IMG/VR virus record: IMGVR_UViG_3300044695_006401
Direction: 5' to 3' (one strand)
DNA: 64,000 nt
Source: a virus
Taxonomy: Duplodnaviria > Caudoviricetes
The translations under genes and the position numbers were made by a program. The notes beneath the pieces are model-generated. The model was not told the DNA's origin. It worked only from the letters and a program-made list of their open reading frames with translations, and made no database searches. This document shows, one piece after another, positions 23,272 through 52,068 of the stretch (positions are counted from its first letter, which is position 1; each line of letters begins with the position of its first letter).

Positions 23272-24897
23272 TTATCCCGCAATTGATACATTACCACCAG
23301 GACTAATCAATACAATAGATTGTCTAAAGTTACTAAACGATATAGGTGATACGGAAGTGTTTATACTTTCGCAAATATTTTGATTCACTAAAGTTATATT
23401 CGAAAGGGAGATACTATCTGCAGTTTCACCAAAGTTCGTACAAGGGAATGTACTATCAGCCGTACTAATAGTTGATACTACATTACTACTAACCGTTCCT
23501 GCTCCAACAATTCTAGCACTGTAAGTTCTTGTTCTAGCACTTGTCTGATATGATATATAGTTAGTACTCGAATTACAAGCGTTTGTTGTTGATACTGATG
23601 ATGTAATTGTGGAAGCTGAAGATAAATATTGACCTCCACCTGTCGTACCTGTTGTAACACTATGTACTATTGTAGGTGTTATGTTTGTTATTCCTCTTGT
23701 AAAATTAGTTACATGTGTCACATTAAACAATAATTGTCTACCCGCAGGTAAAGATGGCGACACACTTACTACCCAATTATAAACCTTAGATACACTACCT
23801 GTCGATGTGGTTGTTTGTCCATTAGTTGGTACAAAATTTAAGGAAACAGTATATTGGGTTACACTTGTGGATGATTGGAGGTTGACGGCATTTGCCGATA
23901 TGTTCCCATCAAAATCTTGTACATAAACAGTATATACACCATTAGATAAGTTTGTAAATGAGTTTGATACTTGGTAAGATGCTGGTGTATTAATCAATGA
24001 ATATGTATATGGTGGGTCTCCACCAATAACATTACTTACTTGTATACTTCCATTAGATGCTGCTGTACAACTTGGGTTATTTGTGGTAATAATTGCCGAA
24101 ATTGTGGCTGAACAGTTACCTAAACTCACCGAAACAGTTCTACTACTTCCTAAAACATTCCAAATTCCAATTGGTGGACTGACTGCCGATGGTAATGAAG
24201 GTTGACCATTAAGTTGCCAACCATTTATCATCCACATGGTGTTTGCCGTGTTGTAATACATTGTTTGAGACGGTGTGGAGGCAGTCCAAGAAGGGTAACC
24301 ATTTATTGTTCCACCTGAAAGAAACTGATACTGTGTTTGTGAACCTTGGTAATTTGAGGTCACACATAATCCTGAAACATTCAACAACGCAGGAACTGTT
24401 GGTAAACATTCCCCACAAGAATCAAAAGGACCTGAAACAAATACAGGTTCATAATTATAATAAGTTTGATTAGTATACAATATTACTCCTGTTCTATTCC
24501 AACACCCACTCTGACCATTAATACTGTAAACCTCATCTATAACATATTGACTTTGTGTGATATCTGCTAAATAAAAAATAACATTTGTGGGATCAATACA
24601 GTTTTCAAATCTTTGTAAATAAAAAGTATCAAACTCAACAGTACATGTTGTAGTTGCACTAAAATCACCATAATAATCAACAACTGTTGCGGTATAGTCA
24701 CCAAATTGTAGGTTTGTAATATTTTGATTTGCCGATCCATTGCTCCATGTAACAGAGTATGGTGGTGTTCCACCAGTGATTATTAAGTTAATTGCACCGT
24801 CCTGAGTAAAAGGGGTATATGCATCTGTAACCACACATTCTACTCCCATAGGAAATAATGTTATTACTTGACAAGAATTACCAGATAAAGCAGGCAT
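23272..24897 (-). CDS. Cys-rich SprB-repeat tail-associated protein (541 aa)
   Basis: DGAINLIITGGTPPYSVTWSNG...NLQFGDYTATVVD and PSCTAASNGSIQVSNVIGGDPPYTYS...GVYTVYVQD. Confidence 0.7.
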   Translation of the reverse strand: MPALSGNSCQVITLFPMGVECVVTDAYTPFTQDGAINLIITGGTPPYSVTWSNGSANQNITNLQFGDYTATVVDYYGDFSATTTCTVEFDTFYLQRFENCIDPTNVIFYLADITQSQYVIDEVYSINGQSGCWNRTGVILYTNQTYYNYEPVFVSGPFDSCGECLPTVPALLNVSGLCVTSNYQGSQTQYQFLSGGTINGYPSWTASTPSQTMYYNTANTMWMINGWQLNGQPSLPSAVSPPIGIWNVLGSSRTVSVSLGNCSATISAIITTNNPSCTAASNGSIQVSNVIGGDPPYTYSLINTPASYQVSNSFTNLSNGVYTVYVQDFDGNISANAVNLQSSTSVTQYTVSLNFVPTNGQTTTSTGSVSKVYNWVVSVSPSLPAGRQLLFNVTHVTNFTRGITNITPTIVHSVTTGTTGGGQYLSSASTITSSVSTTNACNSSTNYISYQTSARTRTYSARIVGAGTVSSNVVSTISTADSTFPCTNFGETADSISLSNITLVNQNICESINTSVSPISFSNFRQSIVLISPGGNVSIAG

Positions 24898-25133: not shown

Positions 25134-26744
25134 TTAACAATTTCCATTTACTCTACAAAACTGTGTTATTTGTCCATTTACATCAACAGAATATATGAAT
25201 CCATTATATCTAATATAGTCTTCAATTATTGGTTCAGTAAGAGAACTATCTTGATAAATAAAGTTTCCTGTTTCTAAAGTGTCAACCGTAGATGAAGTAT
25301 AGAATGTTAGATTAGTACCTCCGTCCGTCAACTGACAAACAGGACACGATACACTAAAACCACCTTGAGCTGACCAAGATTTATATGTAAATGTTGGCGT
25401 TGGTGTTGGTGTTAAACACTCAAGACATGTCACATATGTTGTTGCAGTTGAAGCGGTAAATATTGGTTGGTTTGACCATTTGTAACCACTTGGTGGTGAA
25501 TACCTAACAAAGAACCCAATATATGTAAAACATCCAATATTTTGATCTTTGATTATATCACCAATGTTCACATTACTTGGTGGTGTTTCATCTTGTACAA
25601 TCATCAGATTATTATTACACCCTGTGAATACAAATTGAGTATACGGTTCATAAGTCACAACAGGTGTTGGTGTTGGGCTCGAAGTTGGTGTAGGTGTTGG
25701 TGTTGCGGTAGGAGTAGGTGTTGGTGTTGGTGTGACACATCCAACACATGACCCATATGTTGCCAAAATAGAATTTAAATAGTTTGACGGGCTACCTGCA
25801 ATATCTTCAGTGTATGTGACACATCTGACTTGATTATCAATTCTTGCTTGTAATGTAGTTCCTGTCGCAATAGTCGTTGTACCACTAATTATTGGTCCAC
25901 CCACATAATAAATCTGACCATTATTACAATCTTCCAATACTTTTATTGTTGGGCAATTAAAATATCCTTGTTCAACCACAAATACAACACTCTCACCAGT
26001 TATTGTGTACTGATAGTTTGGTGTTGGTGTAGGTGTTGGGGTAGGTGTAGGTGTTGGGGTAGTGACTGCACTAAATGTAATTGTAGCCGTAAAAACACAA
26101 GGTGTTGGCGTAGGTGTCGGTGTTGGTGTCGGAGTAGGACTAGATGTAGGTGTCGGTGTTGGTGTGGGTGTTACAAAATCACAATCTAATGAAGCGTTAA
26201 AAGTTAGTCCTGAACAAGGGTTTGCCGGTGTTGGGGTCGGTAAGCAAGATCCTGTATAGGAAATTGTTTCACTTAGATCTGGACAGGTCGCATTAGTTGG
26301 TTGTGACCCAAAAAAGTAACATGTCCCAGATAAGGAATTACTAAGACACCAACGAGTTCCCGTAAAATAAACAAAACCATTTGTCGATCCTGTCCAATAC
26401 GGGTATCCGCCATTAGTTCCGGCAACTTCATAAACACCACTATACCCACTATAGGTATCGTTGTTTATTGTGATACAAATTTCATTACTACAAAAAGCAG
26501 AAGAGTTACAAGCAGTTGCAGAACAATTAGCTTGTAATGTATAAACCCCATCGGGCACAAAACTCACACTTGTATAACCTGATGTGAACGCAGAAACAAT
26601 CGTATAACAACCATTAGGAACGGTTGTGTCTGATTGAAAGGAAAAAACTGATGTTACTGCGGAAGTCGCCCCTGTCCAATTACTCTCATCGGTAAAGAAC
26701 TGATATCCAGGATAATAACAACCTTCAAATAAAATATTTGCCAT
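25134..26744 (-). CDS. Cys-rich multidomain virion protein with five (Thr-Pro)n linkers (536 aa)
   Basis: TP tracts at about 25395-25412, 25663-25735, 26018-26054, 26098-26172 and 26225-26243, separating Cys-paired modules. Confidence 0.75.
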   Translation of the reverse strand: MANILFEGCYYPGYQFFTDESNWTGATSAVTSVFSFQSDTTVPNGCYTIVSAFTSGYTSVSFVPDGVYTLQANCSATACNSSAFCSNEICITINNDTYSGYSGVYEVAGTNGGYPYWTGSTNGFVYFTGTRWCLSNSLSGTCYFFGSQPTNATCPDLSETISYTGSCLPTPTPANPCSGLTFNASLDCDFVTPTPTPTPTSSPTPTPTPTPTPTPCVFTATITFSAVTTPTPTPTPTPTPTPNYQYTITGESVVFVVEQGYFNCPTIKVLEDCNNGQIYYVGGPIISGTTTIATGTTLQARIDNQVRCVTYTEDIAGSPSNYLNSILATYGSCVGCVTPTPTPTPTATPTPTPTSSPTPTPVVTYEPYTQFVFTGCNNNLMIVQDETPPSNVNIGDIIKDQNIGCFTYIGFFVRYSPPSGYKWSNQPIFTASTATTYVTCLECLTPTPTPTFTYKSWSAQGGFSVSCPVCQLTDGGTNLTFYTSSTVDTLETGNFIYQDSSLTEPIIEDYIRYNGFIYSVDVNGQITQFCRVNGNC

Positions 26745-26799: not shown

Positions 26800-27597
26800 T
26801 TATAAGAATAGATCAATATATTCTCTCCATCCACACTTTATCAAATTGTATTTTTCAGGATCAGATAGATACATAAAGTCAAACATTTTTTCATCACTAC
26901 CAACATACTCATTGTTAATAGAATTAAGTGTAACCTTTTCAAAAATCTTAACCGCATCTTCTATTTTATTTTTCGGTACGAACAAAGACCCTCCTTGAAT
27001 AAACCTTGTTTGTGAAAGTGCGTGGAATTCTTGGTTTTCGACTCTCACATAATCGTGATGACAGAAAAATGTTATTTTATCATTATCAAGTTTATTAATT
27101 TTTTCTAAATTTGGCCAGTGTACATTTTTTTGCGGGTGGTCTTCTCTAATCACTCCCGCATCTGCCCAAACATATAAGTCAGCATCAAAATAATTATTTT
27201 TGTATGAGTCTAAGATGTAATACAACTTACTAAACATTACAACATTGTACAACGGTTTTGTCATTTCTGGTACATCAAATTGTATTTTCTTTTTAAATGA
27301 CTCGGATGACATTAAATTTTGGAGAGGTTCATTAAATGTTTTATAACCGTCGATTTGTTCTAAAGGTTGTATCACAAAAATTGTCTTTTCTAAGTTGGGG
27401 TCAACCTCTTTTCTGAAATTCATGATTTGATCCTTAAACTTTTCTTCGGTGTAAATTATCAAATTAGTATCCAAATAAAGCAAACTTCTCATCCACCAAA
27501 TATATGTGTGATAAGACATCGTAAAATTGTCCCATTTATCTCTTCCTATATCAAATAGCGCGGTGACTAATGCCGTTTTCTTTATATCCATTCCCAA
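26800..27597 (-). CDS. HtrL/YibB (WlaTC/HtrL)-like putative glycosyltransferase
   Basis: TALVTALFDIGRDKW, YNVVMFSK, YVWADAG, FIQGGSLF, GSDEK. Confidence 0.7.
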   Translation of the reverse strand: MGMDIKKTALVTALFDIGRDKWDNFTMSYHTYIWWMRSLLYLDTNLIIYTEEKFKDQIMNFRKEVDPNLEKTIFVIQPLEQIDGYKTFNEPLQNLMSSESFKKKIQFDVPEMTKPLYNVVMFSKLYYILDSYKNNYFDADLYVWADAGVIREDHPQKNVHWPNLEKINKLDNDKITFFCHHDYVRVENQEFHALSQTRFIQGGSLFVPKNKIEDAVKIFEKVTLNSINNEYVGSDEKMFDFMYLSDPEKYNLIKCGWREYIDLFL

Positions 27598-28328
27598 TTT
27601 ATTTTTATGTTTTTATGTTGTATGTTTACTTGATCGACATCAAAAAAATCAGAAGTATTATCAGATTTTATTATCGTATTTAGTGTATATCCATATTTGT
27701 TCAACATGGTTGGTACAAATCCTTCAGAATATCCGTGTAAACCTTCTTCGTGTATTTCCAATAATTTTTTCATAGCCCTATTAGAAAATCTGTTTGTTGG
27801 AAAAAACGAACCAAACTTTTCATTAATGTCATCGGGTAAAATATCTCCATCGCCCGGAAATCTTTCAAACCACATGTGTTGTGATGTGGTTCTGTTATCA
27901 ATTACTGGTATTTTTTCTTGTGTAATCACATTTGAGTCCTTGAATACGATATAACCTAAAAAGTCTGAATCGTCTTTATCCGTTCCTTCAAAAAATAAAT
28001 CCCAATTCCCAACTTTTACATCGTCATCAAAAAACCAATAATAGTCATAATTGGGGTTTTGGGTGTAATAATTTAACATCCTAAAATGAGCGTAGAACCA
28101 TATTATATTTCGATTCCCGTTTGAATTCCAATAATGTCTTTTACTGACCTCACCAGTAAAATCTAATTGTTCTCTTAATTTTTTTTCTGTATATGTAAAA
28201 CCTAAATTAAAGTTTTCATTTTTACTATTATCTGTCACCCAAACAATGTCTTTAGTGAAGTTTTTCCAATTATTCTCATATGCCGGATACACATCAGGTG
28301 TCGTACAGACACAATATACACTATTCAT
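27582..28328 (-). CDS. Putative GT-A glycosyltransferase (DUF3405-like)
   Basis: YDYYWFFDDDV acidic motif, FFPTNRFSNRAM, GYSEGFVPT. Confidence 0.6.
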   Translation of the reverse strand: MNSVYCVCTTPDVYPAYENNWKNFTKDIVWVTDNSKNENFNLGFTYTEKKLREQLDFTGEVSKRHYWNSNGNRNIIWFYAHFRMLNYYTQNPNYDYYWFFDDDVKVGNWDLFFEGTDKDDSDFLGYIVFKDSNVITQEKIPVIDNRTTSQHMWFERFPGDGDILPDDINEKFGSFFPTNRFSNRAMKKLLEIHEEGLHGYSEGFVPTMLNKYGYTLNTIIKSDNTSDFFDVDQVNIQHKNIKINWEWI

Positions 28329-29139
28329 ATTCTTTTAGTATTATTTCATTCCACTCAGGTATTCTATTGAATTGGTGTACAATGTCATAGACTTGGTCTT
28401 TGTGGTTATATATTTTATTATCTTTAAGATATGGAATACCTCCGTATCTATTTATAAGAGTATTTTTAAATCCCCATGATTCAAAGAACTGTGTAGGTCC
28501 ACCAACAGCACAATGTACAGTCCAACCCTCATCAAAAGAAAATATTTTTAATTTTTCAATTTCATTTTTAGCAATCATTACAATCAATGCCGCTTGATCT
28601 TTGATGTTGTGTAAGTTACTACTGTTTTCACACATATCATTCATTTTGGTATAAAGTTTAATTAACTCTTCTTTTTTTCCTCCGATTACTCCTGAACATA
28701 TAATTTCATGGTTTCGACATAACTCTAAATCTTCGGGGAATACTTTAGATATTACATCACCATTCCAAGGCTCTTCATTTATTTTTAAACCTTCAGAACC
28801 CACAAAAACATCATAGTCATTTGTGAATTTAACAAACGGGTCCGATTGGAAGACAACATCAAAAACATCTGTAATCAAATAAAAATCATAATCAGATGTT
28901 GTAATGAAATCTAAAGTATGTTTCAATCTCTTATTGTTAATAAACCATGTATCCTCAACATTTACCTTAATTGGTATAATACCTAATTGTTCGCATAATT
29001 TTATCTCGTCCTCCGTTGAGTTTGCACAAAGTAGTACGACATCTCCGTCTGTTGATCTTTTGAAGCTATTAGACCAAACTTTTATTTTACCTATGTTTTG
29101 GGATATGTTGTTACATAGTCCAGTTAACACTTTTTTCAT
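28321..29139 (-). CDS. Putative GT-A glycosyltransferase (PLOD-GT-like)
   Basis: YLITDVFDVVFQSDPF (DxxD), IICSGVIGG, DQAAL, HQFNR. Confidence 0.7.
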   Translation of the reverse strand: MKKVLTGLCNNISQNIGKIKVWSNSFKRSTDGDVVLLCANSTEDEIKLCEQLGIIPIKVNVEDTWFINNKRLKHTLDFITTSDYDFYLITDVFDVVFQSDPFVKFTNDYDVFVGSEGLKINEEPWNGDVISKVFPEDLELCRNHEIICSGVIGGKKEELIKLYTKMNDMCENSSNLHNIKDQAALIVMIAKNEIEKLKIFSFDEGWTVHCAVGGPTQFFESWGFKNTLINRYGGIPYLKDNKIYNHKDQVYDIVHQFNRIPEWNEIILKEYE

Positions 29140-29140
29140 A

Positions 29141-29740
29141 CTAACAATTGTTTAATCTATGAGTTAATTGGTCATTTACACCGAAAATTGTTGGCCATGT
29201 ATACTCCAAAGCCCAAATATTATTGTCGTTTCCGTCACCCGGTCCTGAGGATAATGATATAGTTTTTCTAATACTTTCTATCAATTTTACATAAAAATCA
29301 CGGCTGTTTTTTTGAATTGTTTCTTTTTTTACGATACATTGCATACCAGCAACAAACATAAAAGGTAATTCATAACTTATTCCCATCTTATCACAATAAT
29401 CAGTTGCTTGTTTTATACAACCTTCATTATCTCGTACATAGGTCGCACCTAACGGATGGAATTCTTTGTCAAATTTATAACTGTTTATAAATTCTACACA
29501 ATTTTCACAATAATGATCGAAAGGATTACCTTGTAAAAAAATAGTAAAGTCCGTTAAATTATCATAATTGTTTATTATGTGATACAAATGAGTTTGAGCG
29601 TCTTTACCATAATTAGGAAGATTATTTTCATATAAGTGGTCGTCTTCTCTATTCTTATTATATATTGTAACTTTGTGTTTTACATTTTTAGTCCAACTCA
29701 CATCCTCATTAAATTTTGCAACTACTACTTCTACATTCAT
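29141..29740 (-). CDS. DUF3431-family protein (putative GT-like)
   Basis: VVVAKFNEDVSW, NYGKDAQTHLYHIINNYDNL..FTIFLQGNPFDH. Confidence 0.8.
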   Translation of the reverse strand: MNVEVVVAKFNEDVSWTKNVKHKVTIYNKNREDDHLYENNLPNYGKDAQTHLYHIINNYDNLTDFTIFLQGNPFDHYCENCVEFINSYKFDKEFHPLGATYVRDNEGCIKQATDYCDKMGISYELPFMFVAGMQCIVKKETIQKNSRDFYVKLIESIRKTISLSSGPGDGNDNNIWALEYTWPTIFGVNDQLTHRLNNC

Positions 29741-30984
29741 AACTTTTTCTCTATTTTTTCACACCAACCTTTAGATTTAGAAAACGGCCAGACTACATAA
29801 TAATTAGGTTTTTCGGCTGTTTGGAATTTTCTACAGATGTTATACATCTGAGGTTCTTCTCTCGTTAGGAAATTTATTTCATTTATATCTGCATCTTGTC
29901 TGTGTAAAGTTTCACCACCTTCTCTATGGAAAGCAACAACCCAAAATTCATAATCATTCTCAGGTAGTTTTGATCTATCTACACTGATACAGTATTCAAA
30001 GTCTTTTACAAAACTTTCCTTCCACTCATCTTCTGAATTATATTCATATGGATTTGGTGGGTAATTTTTTTGTAGGGTGTAGTCCTGAACAGATCTTTTT
30101 TCAAATAAAAGTCCGGAATATATTTCATAGTCTCTTAATGTTCTTTCTTTTCCAAAACCATAAGGTCCGTCATGACCTTCTTGTTCTAACCCATCCATAC
30201 CAAATAATTTTCTATTTGTAAGATGTGATGATTCATTTTTTTTGTACCATTCTTTATCATCATCCCATTGTTTTGTTCTACCGTTTCTGGTATACTCATG
30301 CCAACACACAATTCTGTGTGGATGAAATAGATCATAACCATGTGTGAACGCCCTAACGGCTATTGAAATTTCCTCTCCGTGAAAATAATATTCAGGATTG
30401 TGTTGAACTTCCTTCGAAAACTGACCTAAAGTAAAACAGAAGTGTGCAGAATAAAATCTAGCCGGCACTGGCATTTCAATTTCTTCCCAATTTGGAATTG
30501 TCTCAGGTAAGAAGAAAACCGCACCTTCAGGTATGAATTTATCAAACGCCATTCTCCAAGGAACTTGGACTCTACCATCGGGATCATTCGTTGGGTTATA
30601 TGAAGGCACATACGATGTTAATAATGGTTTTGGTATGCCTATTTCTTGGAGTTGTTTAACCATGTTGATTAACATTTTATCCCAATTTTTTTCAAATCTC
30701 ATATGGGAATCTATTTGTAATGTGTATTCCTCACCATCATATTGTTGTTGGGTAAGGTTTCTAGCCCAACATACCCCTTTTGACTCTTCGTGAGGTATAT
30801 CAATCACTTTAAATCTTTCATCGTCACTATACTCAGACAGATCATCAAATTTGTCATCAGGGTGAAATTGTTTTGCAATACTGAAAACTAAGTTCTCAGG
30901 ATTTTTTGAATTTTCAATACAACTCTTGATAGTTGGGATTAGTTCAGGGTCACGATATGAAGCAATCTGAATAAAAATTTTCAT
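29737..30984 (-). CDS. GT60-like polypeptide/hydroxyproline alpha-N-acetylglucosaminyltransferase with extra C-terminal domain
   Basis: IFIQIASYRDPEL, GVCWARN, YTLQIDSHMRF (DxH), FYSAHFCF, YFHGEEISIAVRAFTHGYDLFHP. Confidence 0.85.
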   Translation of the reverse strand: MKIFIQIASYRDPELIPTIKSCIENSKNPENLVFSIAKQFHPDDKFDDLSEYSDDERFKVIDIPHEESKGVCWARNLTQQQYDGEEYTLQIDSHMRFEKNWDKMLINMVKQLQEIGIPKPLLTSYVPSYNPTNDPDGRVQVPWRMAFDKFIPEGAVFFLPETIPNWEEIEMPVPARFYSAHFCFTLGQFSKEVQHNPEYYFHGEEISIAVRAFTHGYDLFHPHRIVCWHEYTRNGRTKQWDDDKEWYKKNESSHLTNRKLFGMDGLEQEGHDGPYGFGKERTLRDYEIYSGLLFEKRSVQDYTLQKNYPPNPYEYNSEDEWKESFVKDFEYCISVDRSKLPENDYEFWVVAFHREGGETLHRQDADINEINFLTREEPQMYNICRKFQTAEKPNYYVVWPFSKSKGWCEKIEKKL

Positions 30985-31028: not shown

Positions 31029-32165
31029 TTAATTAAAAGAAACCGTTAAACTACCAATATTTTGAGTGGTATAAAAAACATTTGGTCCTGGAGTCGTTTG
31101 GTATGAACTCACAAGATACGGTGAATTAACTTCTATACTATATGTCTCACCATTTGAGTCTATAATATAAATTGATCCACTACTTCCGATAATACCTGTC
31201 GGTGTCGTTACACCTGTTGTTATGTCTATTTCTATATCTAATGTTGCCCCTGATGAATAATTATACTGTTGTATGTAATAGTTTGTTCCGTCACCACCCA
31301 AAATTATTAAATCACCTGTAGTCGACAATACAATGTCTTGTATCGCAGGATCACCCGAAAGTGATCCTTGTAATTGAAATAGTTGTGTATAAGTTGCAGC
31401 ACTTCCAGATATGTCTATGTTATAGACATAATTCAAAGATGTACCTGTTTGATCATAGTGTGTACAAATCAAAGTATTAGTGTCTTTTGCTTCAAATCCT
31501 TGTCTAGTACTTTCAGAAAAAGGGTTTGTGATTGATCTACTGTATGTTACACTAAAAGGATTTAAGGTATAATTCAACTCGTCAATACCACCATCAAATG
31601 GTCTTACCCAAATTTTGTTTGAACTATTCGCCAATGTGCCACCATCTGTCAACCCACTCAAATTATAACCTCCTTGCATCGTATTATCGTTTATACTATA
31701 CAAGTAAAAATCACTATTGTCATCAAAGGATGATGCAATAACAACATCAGGTGGTGTTGTTGGGGTAGGAGTTGGTGTAGGCGAAACAGTTGGGGTTGGG
31801 GTAGGAGTCGGTGTTGGTGAGATAGTCGGAGTTGGTGTTGCTGTCGGTGGTATAGGTGTAGGTGTTGGACTAACTGTGGGTGTAGGTGTTGGTGTCGAAG
31901 TAGGTGTTGGTGAGATAGTCGGAGTTGGTGTAGGCGTAGGTGTAGGAATACATACTTTATTTTCGGTATATATACATCCATTACTATCTATTAACTTAAC
32001 ACCGATAGAATCATAATTAGGAAAAAAGTAATCAGTATCCACCACAACTGTAGGTGGTATTTGACAACTACCTGATATTAAAAAGCAAGACGTATATCCA
32101 GTATTACATAAAAATACATCATATGGACTTGTTCCACTTGTTACACCAGTTATTTGTATTATCAT
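31029..32165 (-). CDS. Virion protein: Cys-domain, 65-aa (Thr-Pro)n linker, beta-rich C-terminal domain (378 aa)
   Basis: TP tract at about 31755-31950; the C-terminal domain is beta-strand/propeller-like. Confidence 0.75.
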
Positions 32166-32174
32166 CTATTTTTA

Positions 32175-33710
32175 TTATTGTATCTCATAACTACCGTTCC
32201 AAATGAATCTATCAGTACTTGCCCAAGTAAACGGTTGGATTGAATTAACATCGTTAGCGGTTCCACCTGTAGTTTGATATTGTATCGGAGCTTTAGTGTT
32301 AAATCCAGCTCTTGCCCCAACCATAGTAGCATTATACCAAGCGGAACCATTATCTAATAACGTGGCTGTCAATAGTATAGCATCCGCATTAGCGGCAGTA
32401 AACGGCATCGATACATACCATTCACCTGAACCAAATGTTGTTGAGCTACCCATCACAATATTACCCCTAACAAAACATGTTTTACCGATTACTTTGTAGT
32501 ATCCTTCTATAGTTCCATTACCAATTACAGGGTTAGTAACACTTGCTGTCCAAACTGGTGTATATGATGCCCAAGCAGTTTCTATTTGTGAACCCGAAAG
32601 ATTAAATGTCGTTGCTGATATTGTAGTTGCCGAAATTGTTGGTGCAGTTATTCGTCCTCCAACTTTTGTATTACCAGATATGTCAACCATTTCTGTTGGG
32701 TTAGTAATACCAAATCCAACATATCCTCTTGTAGTACCAGTACCTTGGATATGAATATCAGGTATTGTTCCATTAGCGTCTTGACCTGCATAAAATCTAA
32801 TGTAATCCTCTATTGTAGAACCTGATGTTTGACGATTGATAATATTAAGCCCGTTTGCTTCGTTGGAGGCGTATATGAATGTGTCGCCAACTTTACCATA
32901 TCCAGGATATGTTACATCGTCCCAAGTTCTAACACCTGCAGATAAACTAAATAATGGTTTGGTTACAGATGGGGCCCCTGCCACATTAATTCTTGGTAAG
33001 AAAGTATCACCTGATATTTGAAATACACCACCTGCTGTATTTTCATAAGTGATTTTAGATTTTGTCCCAAACGCTTCAACTGTATGTTGTGGATTGTTTG
33101 TATTTATACCCAATCTATTATTAACTTGGTCCAAAGTAATACCTGATGTAATACCAAAATAAGTATTACCTGTTACAGTCCCACCTGATAAAGGTAGATA
33201 TAAACCATCAGGACTAATTCCGCTAGTCCCTGAAGAACCCGAGCTTCCACTACTTCCTGAAGTTCCACTTGACCCTGAGCTTCCACTACTTCCTGAAGAA
33301 CCGCTTGTTCCGCTAGATCCTGAAGAGCCGCTACTTCCACTCGATCCATATGTTCCTGAAGACCCTGAAGAACCTGAGATTCCGCTAGTTCCACTTGAGC
33401 CCGAGCTCCCACTACCTGAGGTACCAGAGGTACCGCTACTTCCTGAAGAACCACTCGACCCTGAAGAACCCGAGCTACCGCTACCTGAGGTACCAGAGGT
33501 GCCGCTACTTCCTGAAGAACCCGAGCTACCGCTACTTCCTGAAGATCCGGAAGTACCTGTACCGCCGCTAATACTCGCAGTAATAGAAGAAAAATATATT
33601 GCACTTGTTATTCCTGAAGCATTAGTGCTGTAGTCTACAAGCACCATAATAGATTGTGGTTGCCCTGAACTTACAAATGGTAGTTGAGATATTCTTAAAT
33701 CTTGTGACAT
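32175..33710 (-). CDS. Tail fibre-like protein with Gly-Ser-Ser collagen-like repeat (511 aa)
   Basis: N-terminal DLRISQLP, about 115-aa G-X-X tract, GINTNNP/GFGITNP fibre motifs, C-terminal YTPVWTAS..NPVIGNGTIEGYY..IGKTCFV head domain. Confidence 0.75.
   Translation of the reverse strand: MSQDLRISQLPFVSSGQPQSIMVLVDYSTNASGITSAIYFSSITASISGGTGTSGSSGSSGSSGSSGSSGTSGTSGSGSSGSSGSSGSSGSSGTSGTSGSGSSGSSGTSGISGSSGSSGTYGSSGSSGSSGSSGTSGSSGSSGSSGSSGTSGSSGSSGSSGTSGISPDGLYLPLSGGTVTGNTYFGITSGITLDQVNNRLGINTNNPQHTVEAFGTKSKITYENTAGGVFQISGDTFLPRINVAGAPSVTKPLFSLSAGVRTWDDVTYPGYGKVGDTFIYASNEANGLNIINRQTSGSTIEDYIRFYAGQDANGTIPDIHIQGTGTTRGYVGFGITNPTEMVDISGNTKVGGRITAPTISATTISATTFNLSGSQIETAWASYTPVWTASVTNPVIGNGTIEGYYKVIGKTCFVRGNIVMGSSTTFGSGEWYVSMPFTAANADAILLTATLLDNGSAWYNATMVGARAGFNTKAPIQYQTTGGTANDVNSIQPFTWASTDRFIWNGSYEIQ
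33218..33568. repeat. Degenerate 9-bp (Gly-Ser-Ser/Gly-Thr-Ser) tandem repeat
   Basis: Recurrent CTTCCTGAAG / GAGCTTCCAC / CCGCTAC units on the plus strand with synonymous variation. Confidence 0.9.
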
Positions 33711-33989
33711 CTATAGTATAATTTTAAAACCGTTTTCTTGTAATATGTAATAACCGTTCTCTTGTAATAAATACCCTATTGGGCAACTTATTAATTGGAA
33801 AACTTCAAAATTATTACTGTCAACAAGTTTGACCATTATGGTTTCTGCAGTTTGAAAAAAACTATTAAGGGTAAAGGTTCCTCCTGTTGTACCAATATAT
33901 TGGCAATTATTACCATTTTCATCACATATAAAAAATTGGTATGGTGGATTACCCCCCGTTTCACCCGATATTACCAAACCACTAGCCAT
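33711..33989 (-). CDS. Small Cys-domain protein with C-terminal LQENG repeat (92 aa)
   Basis: GGNPPYQFFICDENGNNCQYI; ends YLLQENGYYILQENGFKIIL; TAG abuts the fibre ATG. Confidence 0.7.
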   Translation of the reverse strand: MASGLVISGETGGNPPYQFFICDENGNNCQYIGTTGGTFTLNSFFQTAETIMVKLVDSNNFEVFQLISCPIGYLLQENGYYILQENGFKIIL

Positions 33990-33991
33990 TA

Positions 33992-36664
33992 TTAACAGAC
34001 ATATTTAGATAATACGACACCTAAATCGTTAACTTGTAACACATTTCGAGTAGTTATCGGACAAGCACTTGAAACATAAATTCTTGCAAATCCATCCGTA
34101 GGTCCAAAATTAGTCCCAACATATTTAGTTGTTAATAATGGATCCGTATATATCACATCACCAACATTAATCGTTGCACCCGTAGAATAGAGACTTCTGT
34201 TACAAATTGTATCCTCACAAACATCTTCATCAGCAATATTGTAAATATCAAGGTTTGTAAACCAAACAATACCTGACGATGTTGGGGTTGGTGTTGGAGT
34301 CGCAGTAGGTGTTGATGTCGGCACATAAGTTGGTGTCGGTGTTGGAGTTGGTGTTGGTGTTGGAGTTGGTGTTGTTAATTGCGAACATTTGATGTCATAT
34401 GTGATTTCTAATTCAATTTTGAAGTAGTTACTACTGATAGAACTACAATCACATGTTATTTCCAATGTATTATTGAGTACACTTATAGTATATGCGTTTA
34501 CCTCGGGTATTATGTCTAAAATAGCTTCGATTGCGTGTTGCCAAGAATAATCATCGGCATATGTAAATGTTTGTCCCGATGTTGACCCATTAATGGTTAC
34601 TAATGCTTCTAACTCTACTTTATTTAATATACAATTGGAGTACCCTGATAAATTTATTAGGTCAAAAAATCCTTCATTTATCATTTTTTGAATAGATCTC
34701 TTGGTTCCTGTAAGTGTGTCAAATTTTTGATTAACGACATTATATCTTGTTCTACCTGTAACTAAATATTGATTACATACTATGTCGAATGTCCAAAATT
34801 CAGTACACCCACTATTATCTGCAACAGTCACCGAATAACTTCCACCCGACAATCCAGTCACAGTACTCCCTGTACTCCCTGAAGGAACATTATCTGACCA
34901 ATCAAATGTAAATGGTGGTGCACCATCAAAAATTGTTACGGTCGCAGCACCGTCATTATTATTAGTACAGTCGGTTTTAGTTAATGTAGATGTTAGATTA
35001 CCACTTAATGGTACGGTTAAATCTAAACTTACCGTACAGTTATCAGCATCAGTCACTTGTAGTGTATAACTTCCAGGTGTTAAGAAATTGAATGTGTATG
35101 AAGAAAAGTTTACATTTTGTAATGTGTTACCATTACTTAAGACATAATCAATCGGTTCTGTGTAACCAGTACTCACATTTACAGAGATAGATCCGCTTTG
35201 TGATCCACATGACGATGGTGTTGTTGTTGCTGTAACCGTAAACTTACTTTCGGATGTAACTTCCAAAGTTTCGGTATAAACACAACTACTTGAGTTTCCT
35301 GATATTGTTAATAGGTATGTATCGGTTTCCAAACCGTCAAATGTCACATTTTGGTCCTGTGTAAACTTAGTAAACACCTGATTCGTATTTTGACCCGAAA
35401 GAATGTAAGAGTAGAAACCATACAACCCAACAATACTTGTCTGTATTAACCCATTATCAAATGAGCAGGTTGAGTTTGTTATAGTATTACTTACATTTCT
35501 GAATCCATTAACTGAGTTAAGTTCTGTTATAAAATCTAATGTACAAAGATTAGCATCTTTTATAATAATTTGGTAATCCCCTGCGGTTAACCCCGTAATT
35601 GATAATTCATTAGATAGTGTAACTCCTATATTACCAGACGATGCCGAGTAATAGTATGGAACACTTCCACCTGTTATTGTAATATCTATAATTCCATTGT
35701 TACTAAAACATGTTGGGTTAGTTCCTGTGACCAAACCAACCCCCAATGGTGATGCTATATCCACAAAAACACTTTTTGTTAACTCACACCCTTGGCTGTC
35801 TGTTACGGTTACTGAATATTCACCTACCGTTAGTCCTGTTATAGTTTGACCTGTATGTCCGTCAGACCATAAATAGGTGTATGGACATACACCAGTTTGT
35901 CCTGTGACAGAAATTTTTCCTTTGTCAGTTGCACACTGTGAAGTATCTACCTTCCATAAACCAAAATCTAACTGTGTACTAGCACTTATGACAACATTTT
36001 CTGTTTTAGCGGTAACATTACTTGAATCAACAAGTAATGCGTAGTAAATACCCTCACCTAATTCAGGAAATATATATGGTACTGAATTTGTTTGTTGTAT
36101 TTGATTTAGAACTTCATCCTTATATAAAAGAATATTATATGGTGGTGTCGTTGATGATGCACTCACAGTTATTAAACCGTTTTCTAAACCGCAGGTAGTA
36201 CCTTCAACAAAAGTTGTAGTTGCACTAAAACAGTTTCCGACACTTACATTTATAAACAATTCCGAATTAACATCACCTAACGAGTCGTTGAGTCTAAAAA
36301 CATAAGTTTCATCAGTAAGCCCCGTAAAAGTTATTGAAGTTGTTCCTGTTTGTGCGGACAATCCATGACCCACAGGAAAAATTGGGTCAATTGTGTATGG
36401 TGGGTAACCTCCGTTAGGGGATATAGTAACCGATCCATTTGCAATTCCACATGTACCAGTTACCGTGAAAAAATAAGATAATTCAGATGTTCCACTACAA
36501 GCCTGTGTACAAGTACTACCAGTATCATACACTATGTTTACGGCACTTCCAGAGTAACTTTGGTCCAAACATACAGTTTCACCTGATGATGCACCGACCC
36601 TTGTCAATCCACAACAGTCAACATAAGTATAAATTCCATTTGTATATCCACTAATACAAGCCAT
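33992..36664 (-). CDS. Multi-SprB-repeat, Cys-rich virion protein with (Thr-Pro)n linker (890 aa)
   Basis: About 7 repeats C...(N/D)G.I.V...GG..PY.Y.W......GL..G.Y.V.V.D...C; TP tract at about 34278-34378. Confidence 0.8.
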   Translation of the reverse strand: MACISGYTNGIYTYVDCCGLTRVGASSGETVCLDQSYSGSAVNIVYDTGSTCTQACSGTSELSYFFTVTGTCGIANGSVTISPNGGYPPYTIDPIFPVGHGLSAQTGTTSITFTGLTDETYVFRLNDSLGDVNSELFINVSVGNCFSATTTFVEGTTCGLENGLITVSASSTTPPYNILLYKDEVLNQIQQTNSVPYIFPELGEGIYYALLVDSSNVTAKTENVVISASTQLDFGLWKVDTSQCATDKGKISVTGQTGVCPYTYLWSDGHTGQTITGLTVGEYSVTVTDSQGCELTKSVFVDIASPLGVGLVTGTNPTCFSNNGIIDITITGGSVPYYYSASSGNIGVTLSNELSITGLTAGDYQIIIKDANLCTLDFITELNSVNGFRNVSNTITNSTCSFDNGLIQTSIVGLYGFYSYILSGQNTNQVFTKFTQDQNVTFDGLETDTYLLTISGNSSSCVYTETLEVTSESKFTVTATTTPSSCGSQSGSISVNVSTGYTEPIDYVLSNGNTLQNVNFSSYTFNFLTPGSYTLQVTDADNCTVSLDLTVPLSGNLTSTLTKTDCTNNNDGAATVTIFDGAPPFTFDWSDNVPSGSTGSTVTGLSGGSYSVTVADNSGCTEFWTFDIVCNQYLVTGRTRYNVVNQKFDTLTGTKRSIQKMINEGFFDLINLSGYSNCILNKVELEALVTINGSTSGQTFTYADDYSWQHAIEAILDIIPEVNAYTISVLNNTLEITCDCSSISSNYFKIELEITYDIKCSQLTTPTPTPTPTPTPTPTYVPTSTPTATPTPTPTSSGIVWFTNLDIYNIADEDVCEDTICNRSLYSTGATINVGDVIYTDPLLTTKYVGTNFGPTDGFARIYVSSACPITTRNVLQVNDLGVVLSKYVC

Positions 36665-49761: not shown

Positions 49762-51603
49762 TTAACTATAATCTACTGTTGTTATATTTTTAACCCTTAC
49801 TTTTATGTCTTTATTTGGGAATCTTACTTGGTAAATTTGATCGGGCTCTGCAAAAATAGTGTCATCAATAAGTTCAATTTGTTTAGTTGCAACATCTACA
49901 TATCTTTGTGATGTTTCAGATGATGAGTATTGACCGCCAACTCTATTATATACTCTTATTTCAGATAATGTATTAACTCCTTCTATTCCTTGAACGATTT
50001 GTCTAATTTCTGAAACATTAACATTTTCACCTAACTCCCTTGTAGATGGTGCCATGTAAGTTGTTACATTATCAATTATTTGTGTGATGACTTGACTTTG
50101 TGATCCTGCAGCGGTTAAAACAACAAAGAACTCAAATTCCAAATCTATAACTTTAGCGACTTCAATTGAAATATAATCGTTAATCATTCTATACTTCGAT
50201 AGATAAGTTGCCAAATTTGTTTTAAGATTATTCGAGACTGTTTGTGTTAGAGCACCTTGTGTGTCGAAAGAAAGGATCTTCACCAAAATTTTATTGTTGA
50301 ATTCTGATATCGACACTTTAGCTGGGGCACCGTATTGTCCTGGCATTGTATCAATTAGAGACTTGTAGTCATTTATTGTTACCGCTCTTTTTTGTGCCGC
50401 AAAGTTATATGTAACCATATTTCTTACCTCGTTAACTGAAGGTTGGTTTGCTCCTCCGATTGCCGCAGTCACATTATTAACTCTAATCGATTGTATGGTA
50501 TTGTTATTGACAACCGCTGAGGGTCCGTTTACTGCAAAATCAACTAATGCAACTTGATTGATCGCACCAACACCAACATTACTAGCCAATCCACCACCTG
50601 TCCTATATTGAACAAACAAAGTAGTATTTGGTCTTACTGTTAAACCTAAACCTATGTTATTTTGATAATTTTGTATTTTTAGTGGAACACCTGTTTTAGT
50701 AAATTGATTTAGTTGTTCTTCAGGTGTTACAGTCCCATTACCAAATTGAATTCTTAAAAATCCCTCGGGGGTGTATTCAGTAATGAATCGATTATCTGTT
50801 TTTAAATACCTTCCTACTTTTACGCCAGCGTCATCAACAGGTTTAGTTGGGTCCTCGATAAATACTGTATTTTCTACTAATGAATCAACCTCATACCATC
50901 TGTTTGGTGAAGTTTGGAATTCAGTGAAGGATGGTGTTGATTGGTAATCAGTACCGTCTTTTTGTATTATCGATGTCACACCTAAGACATTTTTTTCAGG
51001 TAAGAAAAAACTAAAGAAAGGTATTACTTCTGCAGGGGTAATTACCTTTTTGAATACTTGGGTACTACCATTGACAACAATTTCTCGTTTTGTAATTATG
51101 TAGCTTGATGGTGCAGAATTATCATCACTGAATTGTGGTATTTTTGTTCTGTTCACAAACCCTTCTCTGTTAAATTGAGTTGAGAAATCAATGTCATATA
51201 CGGTTTCAAATGTCGTTCCTCCACCGTTGAATTGGGCTCCGGCTCTTAATATACCTAAATATCTTACATCTTCAGAGTCACCTAAAGCAGGTATAGTTAT
51301 CGAAATATCAACCAAAGCAACAGAAGGTCTAAATCCAGGTACTTTTAGTCCATAGGTTCTAGCAATGTTAAATATAGAAGATCTTTGTTGTGCAAACTGT
51401 AAAACGGTTTCTTGTATACTCCTATCTATATGAAAATGCAAATTGTCACCAATCGCAGCATTCAAATCCATCAGTACTGAAAATACAGACGCATCATTAA
51501 AATTTTGTATTAATTCTGGATAATACTGTTGGGTATAATCTATGAGGTCTTGTCTTAACGCTTCAAAATCTCTGTCAGTATATGCAATTCTTCTATTTGC
51601 CAT
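49762..51603 (-). CDS. gp6: Baseplate wedge subunit (T4 gp6-like / baseplate J)
   Basis: RDFEALRQDL, AQQRSSIFNIARTYG, GGANQPS, QKRAVTINDY; follows gp25. Confidence 0.85.
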   Translation of the reverse strand: MANRRIAYTDRDFEALRQDLIDYTQQYYPELIQNFNDASVFSVLMDLNAAIGDNLHFHIDRSIQETVLQFAQQRSSIFNIARTYGLKVPGFRPSVALVDISITIPALGDSEDVRYLGILRAGAQFNGGGTTFETVYDIDFSTQFNREGFVNRTKIPQFSDDNSAPSSYIITKREIVVNGSTQVFKKVITPAEVIPFFSFFLPEKNVLGVTSIIQKDGTDYQSTPSFTEFQTSPNRWYEVDSLVENTVFIEDPTKPVDDAGVKVGRYLKTDNRFITEYTPEGFLRIQFGNGTVTPEEQLNQFTKTGVPLKIQNYQNNIGLGLTVRPNTTLFVQYRTGGGLASNVGVGAINQVALVDFAVNGPSAVVNNNTIQSIRVNNVTAAIGGANQPSVNEVRNMVTYNFAAQKRAVTINDYKSLIDTMPGQYGAPAKVSISEFNNKILVKILSFDTQGALTQTVSNNLKTNLATYLSKYRMINDYISIEVAKVIDLEFEFFVVLTAAGSQSQVITQIIDNVTTYMAPSTRELGENVNVSEIRQIVQGIEGVNTLSEIRVYNRVGGQYSSSETSQRYVDVATKQIELIDDTIFAEPDQIYQVRFPNKDIKVRVKNITTVDYS

Positions 51604-51606
51604 AGT

Positions 51607-52068
51607 TTATAAATTGATGATAACGAATTGTCTTGTTCCGAAAGCACTGCTTTCGTCAACATATTCTATTTTTATTTTTGCTGTGTACTCTTCAGTATTT
51701 GCTCCAGGAATAGCATAAACAGGAATGTCTTGTTCAGGAACAACTAACTCACCTAAAGATGGTTCAGAATTAACATATGGTTCTATACTTATATTTTGAA
51801 TAGTAAGATTAGGAATAAATGTAGATATTGATTCTTCTATTTCACTTCTCAGTGTTGAAAAGGTATCCCCATCTAAAGGTTCAAAAATATATTCATACAA
51901 TCTTGTACCAAAATTTGGTAGATAGTATCTTGATCCTTTCCTTGTTAGTAACAGATGGACCAAATCAGTTCTGATTTCTTCATCTGGTGTTTCCGATAGA
52001 GATAGGTATTGACCTTTTAAACTCTGTCTTAAAGGAAAATTAATACCATATGTTATTCCGTTTGCCAT
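51607..52068 (-). CDS. gp25: Baseplate/sheath initiator, GPW/gp25 family
   Basis: HLLLTRKGSRYYLPNFGTRLYEYIFEP. Confidence 0.9.
   Translation of the reverse strand: MANGITYGINFPLRQSLKGQYLSLSETPDEEIRTDLVHLLLTRKGSRYYLPNFGTRLYEYIFEPLDGDTFSTLRSEIEESISTFIPNLTIQNISIEPYVNSEPSLGELVVPEQDIPVYAIPGANTEEYTAKIKIEYVDESSAFGTRQFVIINL

Follow-up and report, generated by a model that had tools for sequence, protein, structure and literature searches.

The GT60 glycosyltransferases that have been characterised all act on polypeptides: the protist pp-α-GlcNAc transferases initiate mucin-type O-glycans on domains rich in Ser/Thr, and Gnt1, a cytoplasmic enzyme, modifies a hydroxyproline of Skp1 (PMC8724618, PMC6939170). 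Glycosylated virions are described for the mycobacteriophages Che8, Corndog and Myrna (Freeman et al. 2023, via PMC12619734, PMC12801897), where, as far as these accounts relate, phage transferases and methyltransferases modify the C-termini of the phage's own capsid and tail-tube subunits in the cytoplasm, with no mention of a GT60 initiator; a cluster F1 relative carries an annotated HtrL/YibB gene (PMC10453261). In gels of virions of the Xanthomonas jumbo phage XacN1, PAS staining revealed two or more glycoproteins, as bands without link to its ORF334 (PMC5852040, Suppl. Fig. S4), and its authors annotated a 'glycosyltransferase' only, without tying an acceptor to the locus (PMC5852040). 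Chloroviruses and mimivirus employ self-encoded soluble transferases outside the ER and Golgi for their capsid or fibrils, starting from other initiating enzymes and acting on other acceptors than those considered here. Finally, the Thr-Pro linkers of secreted bacterial cellulases are O-glycosylated and, as carriers of glycans, withstand proteolysis, the sugars being attached by an export-coupled machinery of the host.

Here we describe a locus with resemblance to each of these systems in a stretch of 64,000 nucleotides (the window) from an uncultured lake jumbo phage. Five minus-strand open reading frames between positions 26800 and 30984, which overlap or abut each other, constitute a glycosylation cassette (Table 1). 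As stated in the initial annotation and confirmed by the ORF coordinates, the genes are tightly coupled: the first two overlap by 4 nt, a single nucleotide separates the second from the third, and the last two junctions are overlaps of 8 and 16 nt. If the HtrL gene began at an ATG two codons inside its TTG start, only 10 nt of the last overlap would be left. The cassette interrupts the tail genes, being embedded in a baseplate/fibre block that extends from baseplate wedge subunits (49762-52068) down to position 21035, and is wedged between fibre genes with long Thr-Pro tracts on both sides. Such tracts are found in only 3 of the 56 ORFs of the window, all within three genes of the cassette, and the same arrangement is seen again in hundreds of contigs, which together exclude a chance association. 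Nucleotide-sugar genes are absent from the window, as initially noted, whereas they do occur in the variable middle of the cassettes of relatives.

Table 1. Cassette genes and neighbouring fibre genes in the window.
Feature	Position	Strand	Length	Thr-Pro tracts (nt)
GT60-family (PF11397 'GlcNAc') soluble glycosyltransferase, Gnt1/pp-α-GlcNAc-transferase-like	29737..30984	-	415 aa	
DUF3431 protein, GT-A-like (RgpF/GT2-like) fold	29141..29740	-	199 aa	
Retaining-type GT-A glycosyltransferase, GT24/GT6/GT8/GT77-like fold	28321..29139	-	272 aa	
GT31-like (β-1,3-GlcNAc/Gal-transferase-like) GT-A glycosyltransferase	27582..28328	-	248 aa	
HtrL_YibB-family protein, conserved last cassette gene, TTG start	26800..27597	-	265 aa	
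Upstream neighbour, candidate acceptor and fibre protein	31029..32165	-	378 aa	31758-31946
Downstream neighbour, candidate acceptor and fibre protein	25134..26744	-	536 aa	26019-26171, 25662-25733, 25392-25412
SprB-repeat fibre-like protein with third Thr-Pro tract	33992..36664	-	890 aa	34280-34372
Collagen-like (Gly-Ser/Thr-Ser)n fibre protein, tail-fibre-type C-terminus (PF01391 and PHROGs)	32175..33710	-		

All five proteins had been proposed to be glycosyltransferases or glycan-associated, an assignment that is borne out by Pfam for three of them and by the fold of AF2 models compared with Foldseek for the other two. The first protein matches PF11397 (GT60) with an E-value of 2.7e-68 (231 bits) and phrog_24687 with 4e-160, and its DxH motif (D92-S93-H94) is invariant among 29 aligned homologues. 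It shares this type of metal motif and the lack of a ricin-type lectin domain with the protist enzymes of Dictyostelium and Trypanosoma cruzi, and it is soluble like Gnt1. While those CAZy GT60 enzymes are eukaryotic, this one is encoded by phages and bacteria, and it differs from them by an extra conserved region at the C-terminus (residues 295-415, about 120 aa), which matches no known family, and by the lack of an accompanying prolyl hydroxylase. The phage clade displays no detectable sequence similarity to solved structures. The 199-aa protein belongs to DUF3431 (PF11913, E 9e-14) and its Atlas model superimposes on RgpF with a TM-score of 0.75 and on GT2 with 0.73; phages also contain DUF3431-HtrL fusions. 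No Pfam family was found for either of the two following proteins (hmmscan, E<=0.1). The 272-aa protein, with 414 metagenomic homologues, is on the basis of its AF2 model (pLDDT 94.5) a GT-A glycosyltransferase nearest to retaining enzymes of the GT24/GT6/GT8 type, the PDB matches at E of about 5e-9 comprising the UGGT catalytic domain, α-1,3-GalT and WbbM, and the nearest Swiss-Prot models YfnD/YfnF, GT6 and GT8. The model of the 248-aa protein (pLDDT 94.9) similarly places it among GT-A glycosyltransferases, nearest to GT31 β-1,3 transferases (B3GNT2, B3GalT5 and B3GalT6, E about 2e-6, TM 0.45-0.51); its WFFDDD motif is invariant, with D101-D103 kept in 40 homologues. From the initial labels 'PLOD-GT-like' and 'DUF3405-like' the GT-A fold class was thus retained and the family names were dropped. 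Both names had surfaced only as language-model leads. The last protein is a member of HtrL_YibB (PF09612, E 1.5e-26), which other lineages encode as fusions with a GT-A domain or with domains of sugar O-methyltransferases. Nucleocytoviricota likewise contain relatives of the 248-aa and the 199-aa protein. Judged from hydrophobicity, none of the five enzymes contains a membrane segment (maximum KD19 <=1.33), and among 177 island proteins only two are marginally hydrophobic.

The long Thr-Pro linkers ascribed to both neighbours of the cassette are present, with lengths of 63 residues in the 378-aa protein and up to 51 residues in the 536-aa protein. The former (phrog_15511) combines an N-terminal module of ~65 aa, the linker and a variable C-terminal domain, and its module occurs 218 times around cassettes, either as a small stand-alone protein or as head of Thr-Pro proteins. 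The latter contains four Cys-containing modules with linkers between them, and it is kept with its tracts in all close relatives. These tracts are also break points of metagenome assemblies. The 890-aa protein matches SprB (PF13573, E 4e-23), and the collagen-like fibre matches PF01391 (E 1.8e-12) and several tail-fibre PHROGs.

The locus was found in about 250 related viral contigs, where it is built like a serotype locus. The first gene is always GT60, the last usually HtrL (the terminal gene in most of 80 loci), and between them reside 0-13 highly variable genes. These fall into 57 families of a glycan-tailoring kind, including GT2, GT10, GT25, GT31 and GT7C transferases, FkbM/TylF methyltransferases, DegT aminotransferases, GNAT and hexapeptide acyltransferases, a carbamoyltransferase, a sulfotransferase and an NTP-transferase. 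GT60 is single-copy in 9 of 10 large related contigs and in all five genomes that are >=90% complete. It stands alone, with the rest of the cassette missing, in at least 15 loci, whereas HtrL without GT60 was never found among the loci surveyed. The frequency of such minimal cassettes fits a role of GT60 as priming enzyme and of the other genes as optional extenders. In the lineage of the window, the slot between the two Thr-Pro genes is always occupied by a glycosyltransferase, namely a GT60 of either of two subtypes or, at three loci, a GT29-like gene. The latter three relatives keep the linkers, and as their contigs are fragments, a GT60 may lie elsewhere in these genomes. A common skeleton also extends to XacN1 and its relatives Xoo-sp13, CM1 and RAS14, whose GT60 homologues are 44-46% identical over their full length and whose last gene is HtrL-like. 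In the cultured XacN1, the cassette reaches from ORF334 (GT60, 46% identical) to ORF330 (HtrL-like) beside baseplate wedge genes, with ORF325, a protein of 3313 aa containing a Thr-Pro tract, also nearby. Its middle genes, a carbamoyltransferase and two other ORFs, differ from those of the window, and its HtrL is a fusion protein of 546 aa instead of 265 aa.

The co-occurrence of GT60 with Thr-Pro proteins among related phages had been set as a test in the initial annotation, and its outcome is positive. In 38 dereplicated loci, with related loci counted as independent, Thr-Pro linkers are encoded by 35 of 71 direct flanking genes compared to 28 of 488 other ORFs (Fisher p 4e-19) and by none of the 167 ORFs inside the cassettes. 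Genome G002 (295 kb) has a single tract coding for TPTPTPTP, located just upstream of GT60. Thr-Pro linkers are common flexible spacers, and in these phages tracts are also found tens of kb from the cassette. The coupling extends to bacteria. In the surroundings of 228 full-length bacterial GT60 homologues, Thr-Pro proteins account for 16 of 241 ORFs at a distance of up to two genes compared to 8 of 499 further off (p 6e-4), with mucin-like examples in Jiulongibacter and Gemmatimonadaceae. Further bacterial homologues reside within T6SS clusters and a C39-ABC peptide-export cluster, where DNA is no plausible acceptor.

Because GT60 adjoins Thr-Pro linker proteins in hundreds of phages and in some bacteria, the phage is likely to coat its own fibres with sugar, and we favour, with a fair degree of reserve, the view that the cassette is a cytoplasmic mucin-type O-glycosylation system for the linkers of these fibres. 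An alternative that we consider unlikely assumes virion proteins to be glycosylated elsewhere, on segments rich in Ser/Thr, for instance the collagen-like fibre or, as in mycobacteriophages, capsid or tail-tube termini, the linkers being mere neighbours since both features reside in a hypervariable fibre region. The collagen-like fibre is indeed encoded two genes upstream and directly adjoins GT60 in some relatives, a Thr-Pro neighbour is absent at some loci (L049, G007), and the stained bands of XacN1 carry no protein names. Conversely, the enrichment is specific to immediately adjacent genes and is seen again in unrelated genomes near the bacterial homologues, and characterised GT60 enzymes have a preference for mucin-type sequences rich in Thr/Pro or for hydroxyproline (PMC8724618, PMC6939170).

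DNA bases and host LPS had been named as other conceivable targets. It appears improbable that the cassette hypermodifies phage DNA by placing sugars on hydroxymethyl- or hydroxy-pyrimidines against restriction, as in T-even phages and TET/ThyS-associated GT-A and GT-B systems. Phage transferases that attach diverse glycans to DNA are documented (bioRxiv 10.1101/2023.12.21.572611), and in long HtrL fusions the GT-A domain at the C-terminus weakly matches the TET-associated DNA glycosyltransferases (TAGT), with 20 bits, under the cut-off of 27.5 bits. On the other side of the cassette, several lineages and XacN1 encode DNA-replication genes, which border it as DNA polymerase genes in XacN1 and L009-type lineages. 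However, a Thy-family gene, the partner to be expected if DNA were glycosylated, is found in only three of five large contigs, at a distance from the cassette of over 100 kb, and is missing from G002, which is 98% complete and has a large cassette; no Tet_JBP gene was matched in the five contigs, where the search's own control was likewise silent. The affiliation of GT60 with polypeptide transferases, the T6SS and peptide-export clusters, and the content of sulfotransferase, carbamoyltransferase, GT10, GT25 and GT31, typical of surface glycans, point in the same direction. We similarly give little credence to a remodelling of the host LPS/LOS core, capsule or S-layer glycan for superinfection block or altered receptor display, as suggested by HtrL_YibB genes that Escherichia, Salmonella, Campylobacter and Acinetobacter carry in their LOS/LPS core loci (PMC4172580), by the frequency of GT25, GT8-like and GT31-like enzymes in LOS synthesis and by large cyanophage transferase clusters read in this way (PMC12801897), since the islands lack a polyprenyl-phosphate transferase, flippase, polymerase or transporter and are practically free of membrane segments, their invariant first gene is from a polypeptide-transferase family, the locus sits among structural genes coupled to Thr-Pro proteins, and its carriers are large, apparently lytic phages.

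In the favoured O-glycosylation of fibre linkers, which is supported as a proposal by the co-occurrence and the GT60-only cassettes, the soluble GT60 as putative initiating enzyme would transfer a first hexosamine, most likely α-GlcNAc from host UDP-GlcNAc, to Thr (or Ser) residues of the (Thr-Pro)n linkers that join the modules of the 378-aa, 536-aa and 890-aa proteins, acceptors akin to the mucin-like tracts of pp-α-GlcNAc transferases and to cellulase linkers. The collagen-like Gly-Ser/Thr fibre may be a further target. The DUF3431 protein, a proposed glycan-extending enzyme, the retaining GT-A, the GT31-like GT-A and HtrL, in whichever order the four may act, would then, ahead of tail assembly or in its course, extend the primer to a short oligosaccharide, much as dedicated transferases follow the primer in the Skp1 pathway. 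As in mycobacteriophages, insofar as that system is recounted, the phage would thus modify its own structural proteins in the cytoplasm, although with inter-domain fibre linkers as putative acceptors and by an island with conserved ends and variable middle that is spread across a large group of aquatic jumbo phages. The likely benefit would be linkers that are protease-resistant, extended and either masked or adhesive, and with the locus's conserved ends and swappable middle, different phages would display different glycans.

The window resembles part of the genome of a large tailed phage, with nearly all of its genes on the minus strand, a GC content of 0.28-0.39 and no tRNAs. Its structural block, which opens with two baseplate wedge subunits and includes fibre proteins and several large proteins without assignment, is bordered on both sides by replication and recombination genes (RNR, DnaB, UvsX-like, RuvC-like, primase and SbcCD). 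As proposed in the initial annotation, the cassette of five putative glycosylation genes interrupts a run of tail proteins within this baseplate and fibre block, and the ORF coordinates bear out the described tight coupling of its members, which at successive junctions overlap by 4 nt, leave a gap of 1 nt, and overlap by 8 nt and by 16 nt. For the last gene, with TTG as listed start, an in-frame ATG is found two codons on (27591), which would reduce the overlap from 16 to 10 nt. The cassette is set off from the flanking genes by AT-rich spacers of 44 and 55 nt that carry no terminator-like sites. Since our scan for promoters and terminators identified sites that were no commoner than in sequence after shuffling, and did not place a terminator on either side of the cassette, we can only infer that cassette and fibre genes are co-transcribed. 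In a DNA-level search of phage genomes, the sole match was weak and extended over 281 nt.

Features of the window and of related loci (L-numbers denote fetched phage or bacterial loci; other positions refer to the window)
Feature	Location	Strand	Description
Baseplate wedge subunits	51607-52068; 49762-51603		Start of the structural block, which ends at 21035
SprB-repeat proteins	33992-36664; 23272-24897		Fibre region
PT tract of the 890-aa SprB protein	34280-34372		Further Thr-Pro tract
Copies of the ~65-aa module	31950-32165; 33711-33989		First copy is the N-terminus of the 378-aa protein
Collagen-like fibre	32175-33710
378-aa upstream protein	Thr-Pro repeat 31758-31946		N-terminal module of ~65 aa, 63-residue Thr-Pro repeat, variable C-terminal domain
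Gene 1	29737-30984	minus	PF11397/GT60
Gene 2	29141-29740	minus	DUF3431
Gene 3	28321-29139	minus	Retaining-type GT-A by predicted fold
Gene 4	27582-28328	minus	GT31-like by predicted fold
Gene 5	26800-27597	minus	HtrL_YibB
536-aa downstream protein	PT tracts 26019-26171; 25662-25733; 25392-25412		Four Cys-containing modules joined by PT tracts
HtrL fusions	L009:12853-14532; L005:6673-9045; L038:15920-18256		Examples of long forms
GT29-like genes	L098:5222-5824; L116:5227-5817; L099	opposite to GT60	In place of GT60
Small proteins beside bacterial GT60 and HtrL	L185:6941-7729; L190:7230-7955		Membrane anchor and Thr-Pro/Ser-Pro tail of ~100-150 aa
GT60 in T6SS clusters	L214, L215, L218, L222, L232, L233, L236, L240, L241, L243, L244 and others
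Sphingobacterium zeae cluster	L228:3924-12084		GT60-like gene with exporter

Gene 1 matches PF11397 with 231.5 bits (cut-off 21, E 2.7e-68) up to profile position 350 of 352 and phrog_24687 with an E-value of 4e-160; a second GT60 subtype found in phages matches PF11397 at about 1e-67. The triplet D92-S93-H94 and about 90 further positions are invariant in 29 phage homologues, including that of the cultured Xanthomonas jumbo phage XacN1, and we take this triplet, from knowledge of the family and not from a structure, to be the metal-binding DxH/DxD catalytic motif of GT-A enzymes. The approximately 120 residues past the Pfam domain (295-415), which are conserved across the phage and bacterial clade, contain no Pfam domain, and the same scan detected no C-terminal ricin-type lectin domain, whose absence distinguishes GT60 from GT27. 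Gene 5 is covered over its full length by HtrL_YibB (PF09612, 94 bits, cut-off 24.1, E 1.5e-26, residues 7-264 on profile positions 2-265 of 267), a family for which we know of no biochemical activity. For gene 2, the match to DUF3431 (PF11913, 52.2 bits, cut-off 25, E 9e-14) has its best stretch in residues 5-76 only, and its model from the Atlas, our source of language-model neighbours and structure models, superimposes on a DUF3431 cluster with a TM-score of 0.87 and on RgpF and GT2 transferases with 0.73-0.75. Fusions of DUF3431 and HtrL exist among phage proteins.

Genes 3 and 4, with several hundred metagenomic homologues each, match neither a Pfam family (E≤0.1) nor a PDB entry by sequence, and are described by their confidently predicted folds (pLDDT 94.5 and 94.9). 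The nearest folds of gene 3 are the UGGT catalytic domain (GT24), GT6 alpha-1,3-GalT and GT8-like proteins (E about 5e-9, TM 0.5-0.6), with GT77 also near, which identifies the model as a retaining-type GT-A enzyme. Gene 4, in which a WFFDDD motif is invariant, resembles the GT31 beta-1,3 transferases B3GNT2 and B3GalT5/6 (E about 2e-6, TM 0.45-0.51) without matching the Pfam Galactosyl_T family. Of the earlier labels 'PLOD-GT-like' (PF25342) for gene 3 and 'DUF3405-like' (PF11885) for gene 4, a resemblance at the level of the fold is retained and the family assignment is not: PLOD is an Atlas lead at rank 37 only, and the only trace of DUF3405 is that 15% of the members of a cluster of language-model neighbours carry this domain. 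The PLOD glycosyltransferase domain acts on collagen hydroxylysine; we rejected such an action of gene 3 on the collagen-like fibre, as there is no profile match and no lysine in the collagen-like repeats. Searches of solved structures with the sequences or profiles of GT60, HtrL and the 272-aa and 248-aa proteins encoded by genes 3 and 4 returned nothing meaningful, the matches to ferritin and kinetochore proteins being due to chance.

Long Thr-Pro (PT) tracts are found in only three of the 56 ORFs of the window, comprising the two immediate neighbours of the cassette, for which such linkers had initially been noted, and the 890-aa SprB protein. Co-occurrence of GT60 cassettes with PT genes in related phages, suggested earlier as a check, proved to be pronounced: in 38 loci that remained after dereplication, and that as relatives are not fully independent, a PT linker is encoded by 35 of the 71 genes immediately next to the cassette, compared to 28 of 488 other ORFs and none of the 167 genes within it (Fisher p 4e-19). 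PT tracts are not restricted to this locus and also occur 20-70 kb away in two complete genomes; in the 295-kb contig G002, the sole strict match is located just upstream of GT60. Around the cassettes of the fetched loci, the module at the N-terminus of the 378-aa protein has 218 matches, either as stand-alone small proteins (72-96 aa) or as head of PT proteins (150-880 aa). This is the pattern expected of a virion-attachment domain on variable fibres, and the module may be a conserved domain of this kind. A virion structural PHROG is matched by one of these neighbours.

A scan of IMG/VR identified 253 relatives of GT60 with 66-78% identity on contigs of up to 295 kb. Nine of ten large contigs carry the gene as a single copy, as do all five with a completeness of at least 90%. 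The 80 fetched loci all have GT60 as the first gene of the cassette and, with six exceptions, an HtrL homologue as the last, with 0 to 13 genes in between, whose 174 distinct proteins fall into 57 clusters. The locus is a glycan island with conserved ends and a variable middle. The middle proteins belong by Pfam to the transferase families GT2, GT10, GT25, GT31 and GT7C, to FkbM and TylF methyltransferases, DegT aminotransferases, GNAT and hexapeptide acyltransferases, and to carbamoyltransferase, sulfotransferase, NTP-transferase and HAD phosphatase families, which by their annotation make up a predicted glycan-tailoring toolkit. In most lineages, HtrL extends to about 557 aa and includes an extra GT-A domain with weak similarity to GT2 and TAGT and sometimes, at its N-terminus, a sugar O-methyltransferase domain of the FkbM or TylF type. 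Within the lineage of the window, compared by anchoring on a conserved 736-aa structural gene, the slot between the two PT genes is always filled by a transferase, which is one of the two GT60 subtypes, often GT60 alone, or at three loci a GT29-like (sialyltransferase-family) gene, which looks like a non-orthologous replacement.

Relatives of GT60 are also found in bacteria, where a scan of 185,579 species genomes identified 228 full-length proteins with 37-64% identity. The best matches in this collection come from low-GC contigs, one of 230 kb, that were binned with Saprospiraceae; together with the SprB gliding-adhesin repeats, these contigs provide a lead towards Bacteroidota as hosts, or they might be phage contigs mis-binned in MAGs. 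The pair of GT60 and HtrL is found again in Gemmatimonadota, Cytophagales and others, and PT proteins are enriched close to bacterial GT60 genes (16 of 241 ORFs within two genes versus 8 of 499 beyond, p 6e-4), as exemplified in Jiulongibacter by a mucin-like protein of 262 aa with a membrane anchor and in Gemmatimonadaceae by a protein of 241 aa. The N-terminus of the small Gemmatimonadaceae PT protein appears PqqD-like by eye. The type VI secretion (T6SS) clusters of 14 Burkholderiaceae and related loci include a full-length GT60-like gene (37-47% identical), which follows TssF, TssG, an unassigned gene and a fimbrial/MrkD-like protein and precedes, in some loci, ClpV. This location inside the cluster of a contractile injection system parallels the baseplate setting in phages. 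In Sphingobacterium zeae, a GT60-like gene is accompanied by a C39-peptidase ABC exporter, a Cys-rich SPASM-like 431-aa protein and an outer-membrane barrel, in a cluster that could be a glycosylated-peptide locus of the RiPP or bacteriocin-like type.

GT60 enzymes characterized so far modify polypeptides, by mucin-type priming on Ser/Thr-rich domains or on the hydroxyproline of cytoplasmic Skp1 (PMC8724618, PMC6939170). In the mechanism that we find best supported, and which sequence relationships and gene context render fairly probable, GT60 would initiate an O-glycan on the PT linkers of fibre proteins, which the other four enzymes of the cassette would lengthen. The cassette could instead glycosylate DNA bases, in the manner of the alpha- and beta-glucosyltransferases of T-even phages or of GT-A/GT-B enzymes associated with TET or ThyS, in line with the weak, below-threshold TAGT matches of the long HtrL fusions. 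DNA glycosylation requires a hydroxymethylating or hydroxylating partner such as a Thy homologue or a TET/JBP dioxygenase. Three of five contigs have a Thy-family gene, far away from the cassette; the 98%-complete G002 has none. A Tet_JBP search of the five contigs was empty, with its control being silent too. As the PT proteins, T6SS clusters and C39 exporter around bacterial homologues point to a protein or peptide as acceptor rather than to DNA, we regard this activity as improbable. Little credence is also given to a remodelling of the host envelope: no polyprenyl-phosphate priming transferase, flippase/polymerase or transporter is contained among the 25 of 29 island Pfam families listed, although this absence alone does not speak against peripheral enzymes of the LPS-core type, and a hydrophobicity scan detected membrane-like segments in none of the five window enzymes and, marginally, in two of 177 island proteins. 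Hydroxyproline is an unlikely acceptor, since of five genomes only one has P4H-like 2OG oxygenases, which it encodes far away from the cassette.

The priming of fibre linkers by GT60 would find a counterpart in XacN1, where the cassette ORF334-330, with ORF334 as GT60 homologue, adjoins ORF323/324, which are baseplate wedge genes, and ORF325, whose 3313-aa product contains a PT tract. The virions of this phage contain at least two PAS-stained glycoproteins, and the authors propose phage transferases as their makers (PMC5852040). The window may itself belong to the 'moraphages', freshwater jumbo phages of 200-307 kb with DnaJ/K genes and predicted Bacteroidota hosts, whose core includes four transferase orthogroups given without a target (PMC12619734). 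Our literature search for GT60 in phages or for glycosylated phage tails found no account of such a system. To our knowledge, only a few mycobacteriophages have been demonstrated to glycosylate their own particles, with a hint of the same for XacN1; the gene context of the window, with transferases located among structural genes, is of the mycobacteriophage type, and glycans enter the comparison only indirectly, through the PAS-stained bands of XacN1. The polypeptide HexNAc-transferases of the GT60 family have so far been characterized only in protists. We tentatively, and at slightly less than even chances, extend the proposal to a GT60-primed mucin-type O-glycosylation of Thr-Pro linkers of fibres in the bacterial cytoplasm, encoded by a single-copy core locus of a large group of freshwater jumbo phages, with the same subfamily serving bacterial contractile machines, including T6SS, and secreted mucin-like proteins. 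As its initiator and its last gene are fixed and its middle is freely swapped, the locus would be of serotype-like build and phage populations would display varied fibre 'glycotypes'.

Many metagenomes of lake water taken between 2020 and 2024 contain the cassette in nearly identical form. In these, the conserved GT60 core (about 30069-30538) draws 20-30 times the contig depth of its flanks, the range being 20-40 times for the core and the PT tracts (25684-26057) together, which suggests that many co-occurring phages have these segments, and GT60 in particular, in common. Assemblies break at the PT tracts. Exact contigs of 151-243 nt from genes 2 and 4 in one RNA library, where carry-over of DNA is possible, provide weak evidence for their expression. 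If the proposal is true, the abundant jumbo phages of lakes, probably with Bacteroidota as hosts, would have in their glycosylated fibres a trait that is core, ancient and highly diversified, and a GT60 gene beside PT-linker genes would be its recognizable genetic signature, which would assign a function to many unexplained transferase clusters of large aquatic phages. It would also offer a soluble toolbox for peptide O-glycosylation with dozens of natural extender sets and, with XacN1, Xoo-sp13, CM1 and RAS14 as cultured carriers, render testable whether fibre glycans affect host range, protease resistance or escape from recognition. Mucin-type priming by GT60 would then reach beyond protists to bacteria and their viruses.
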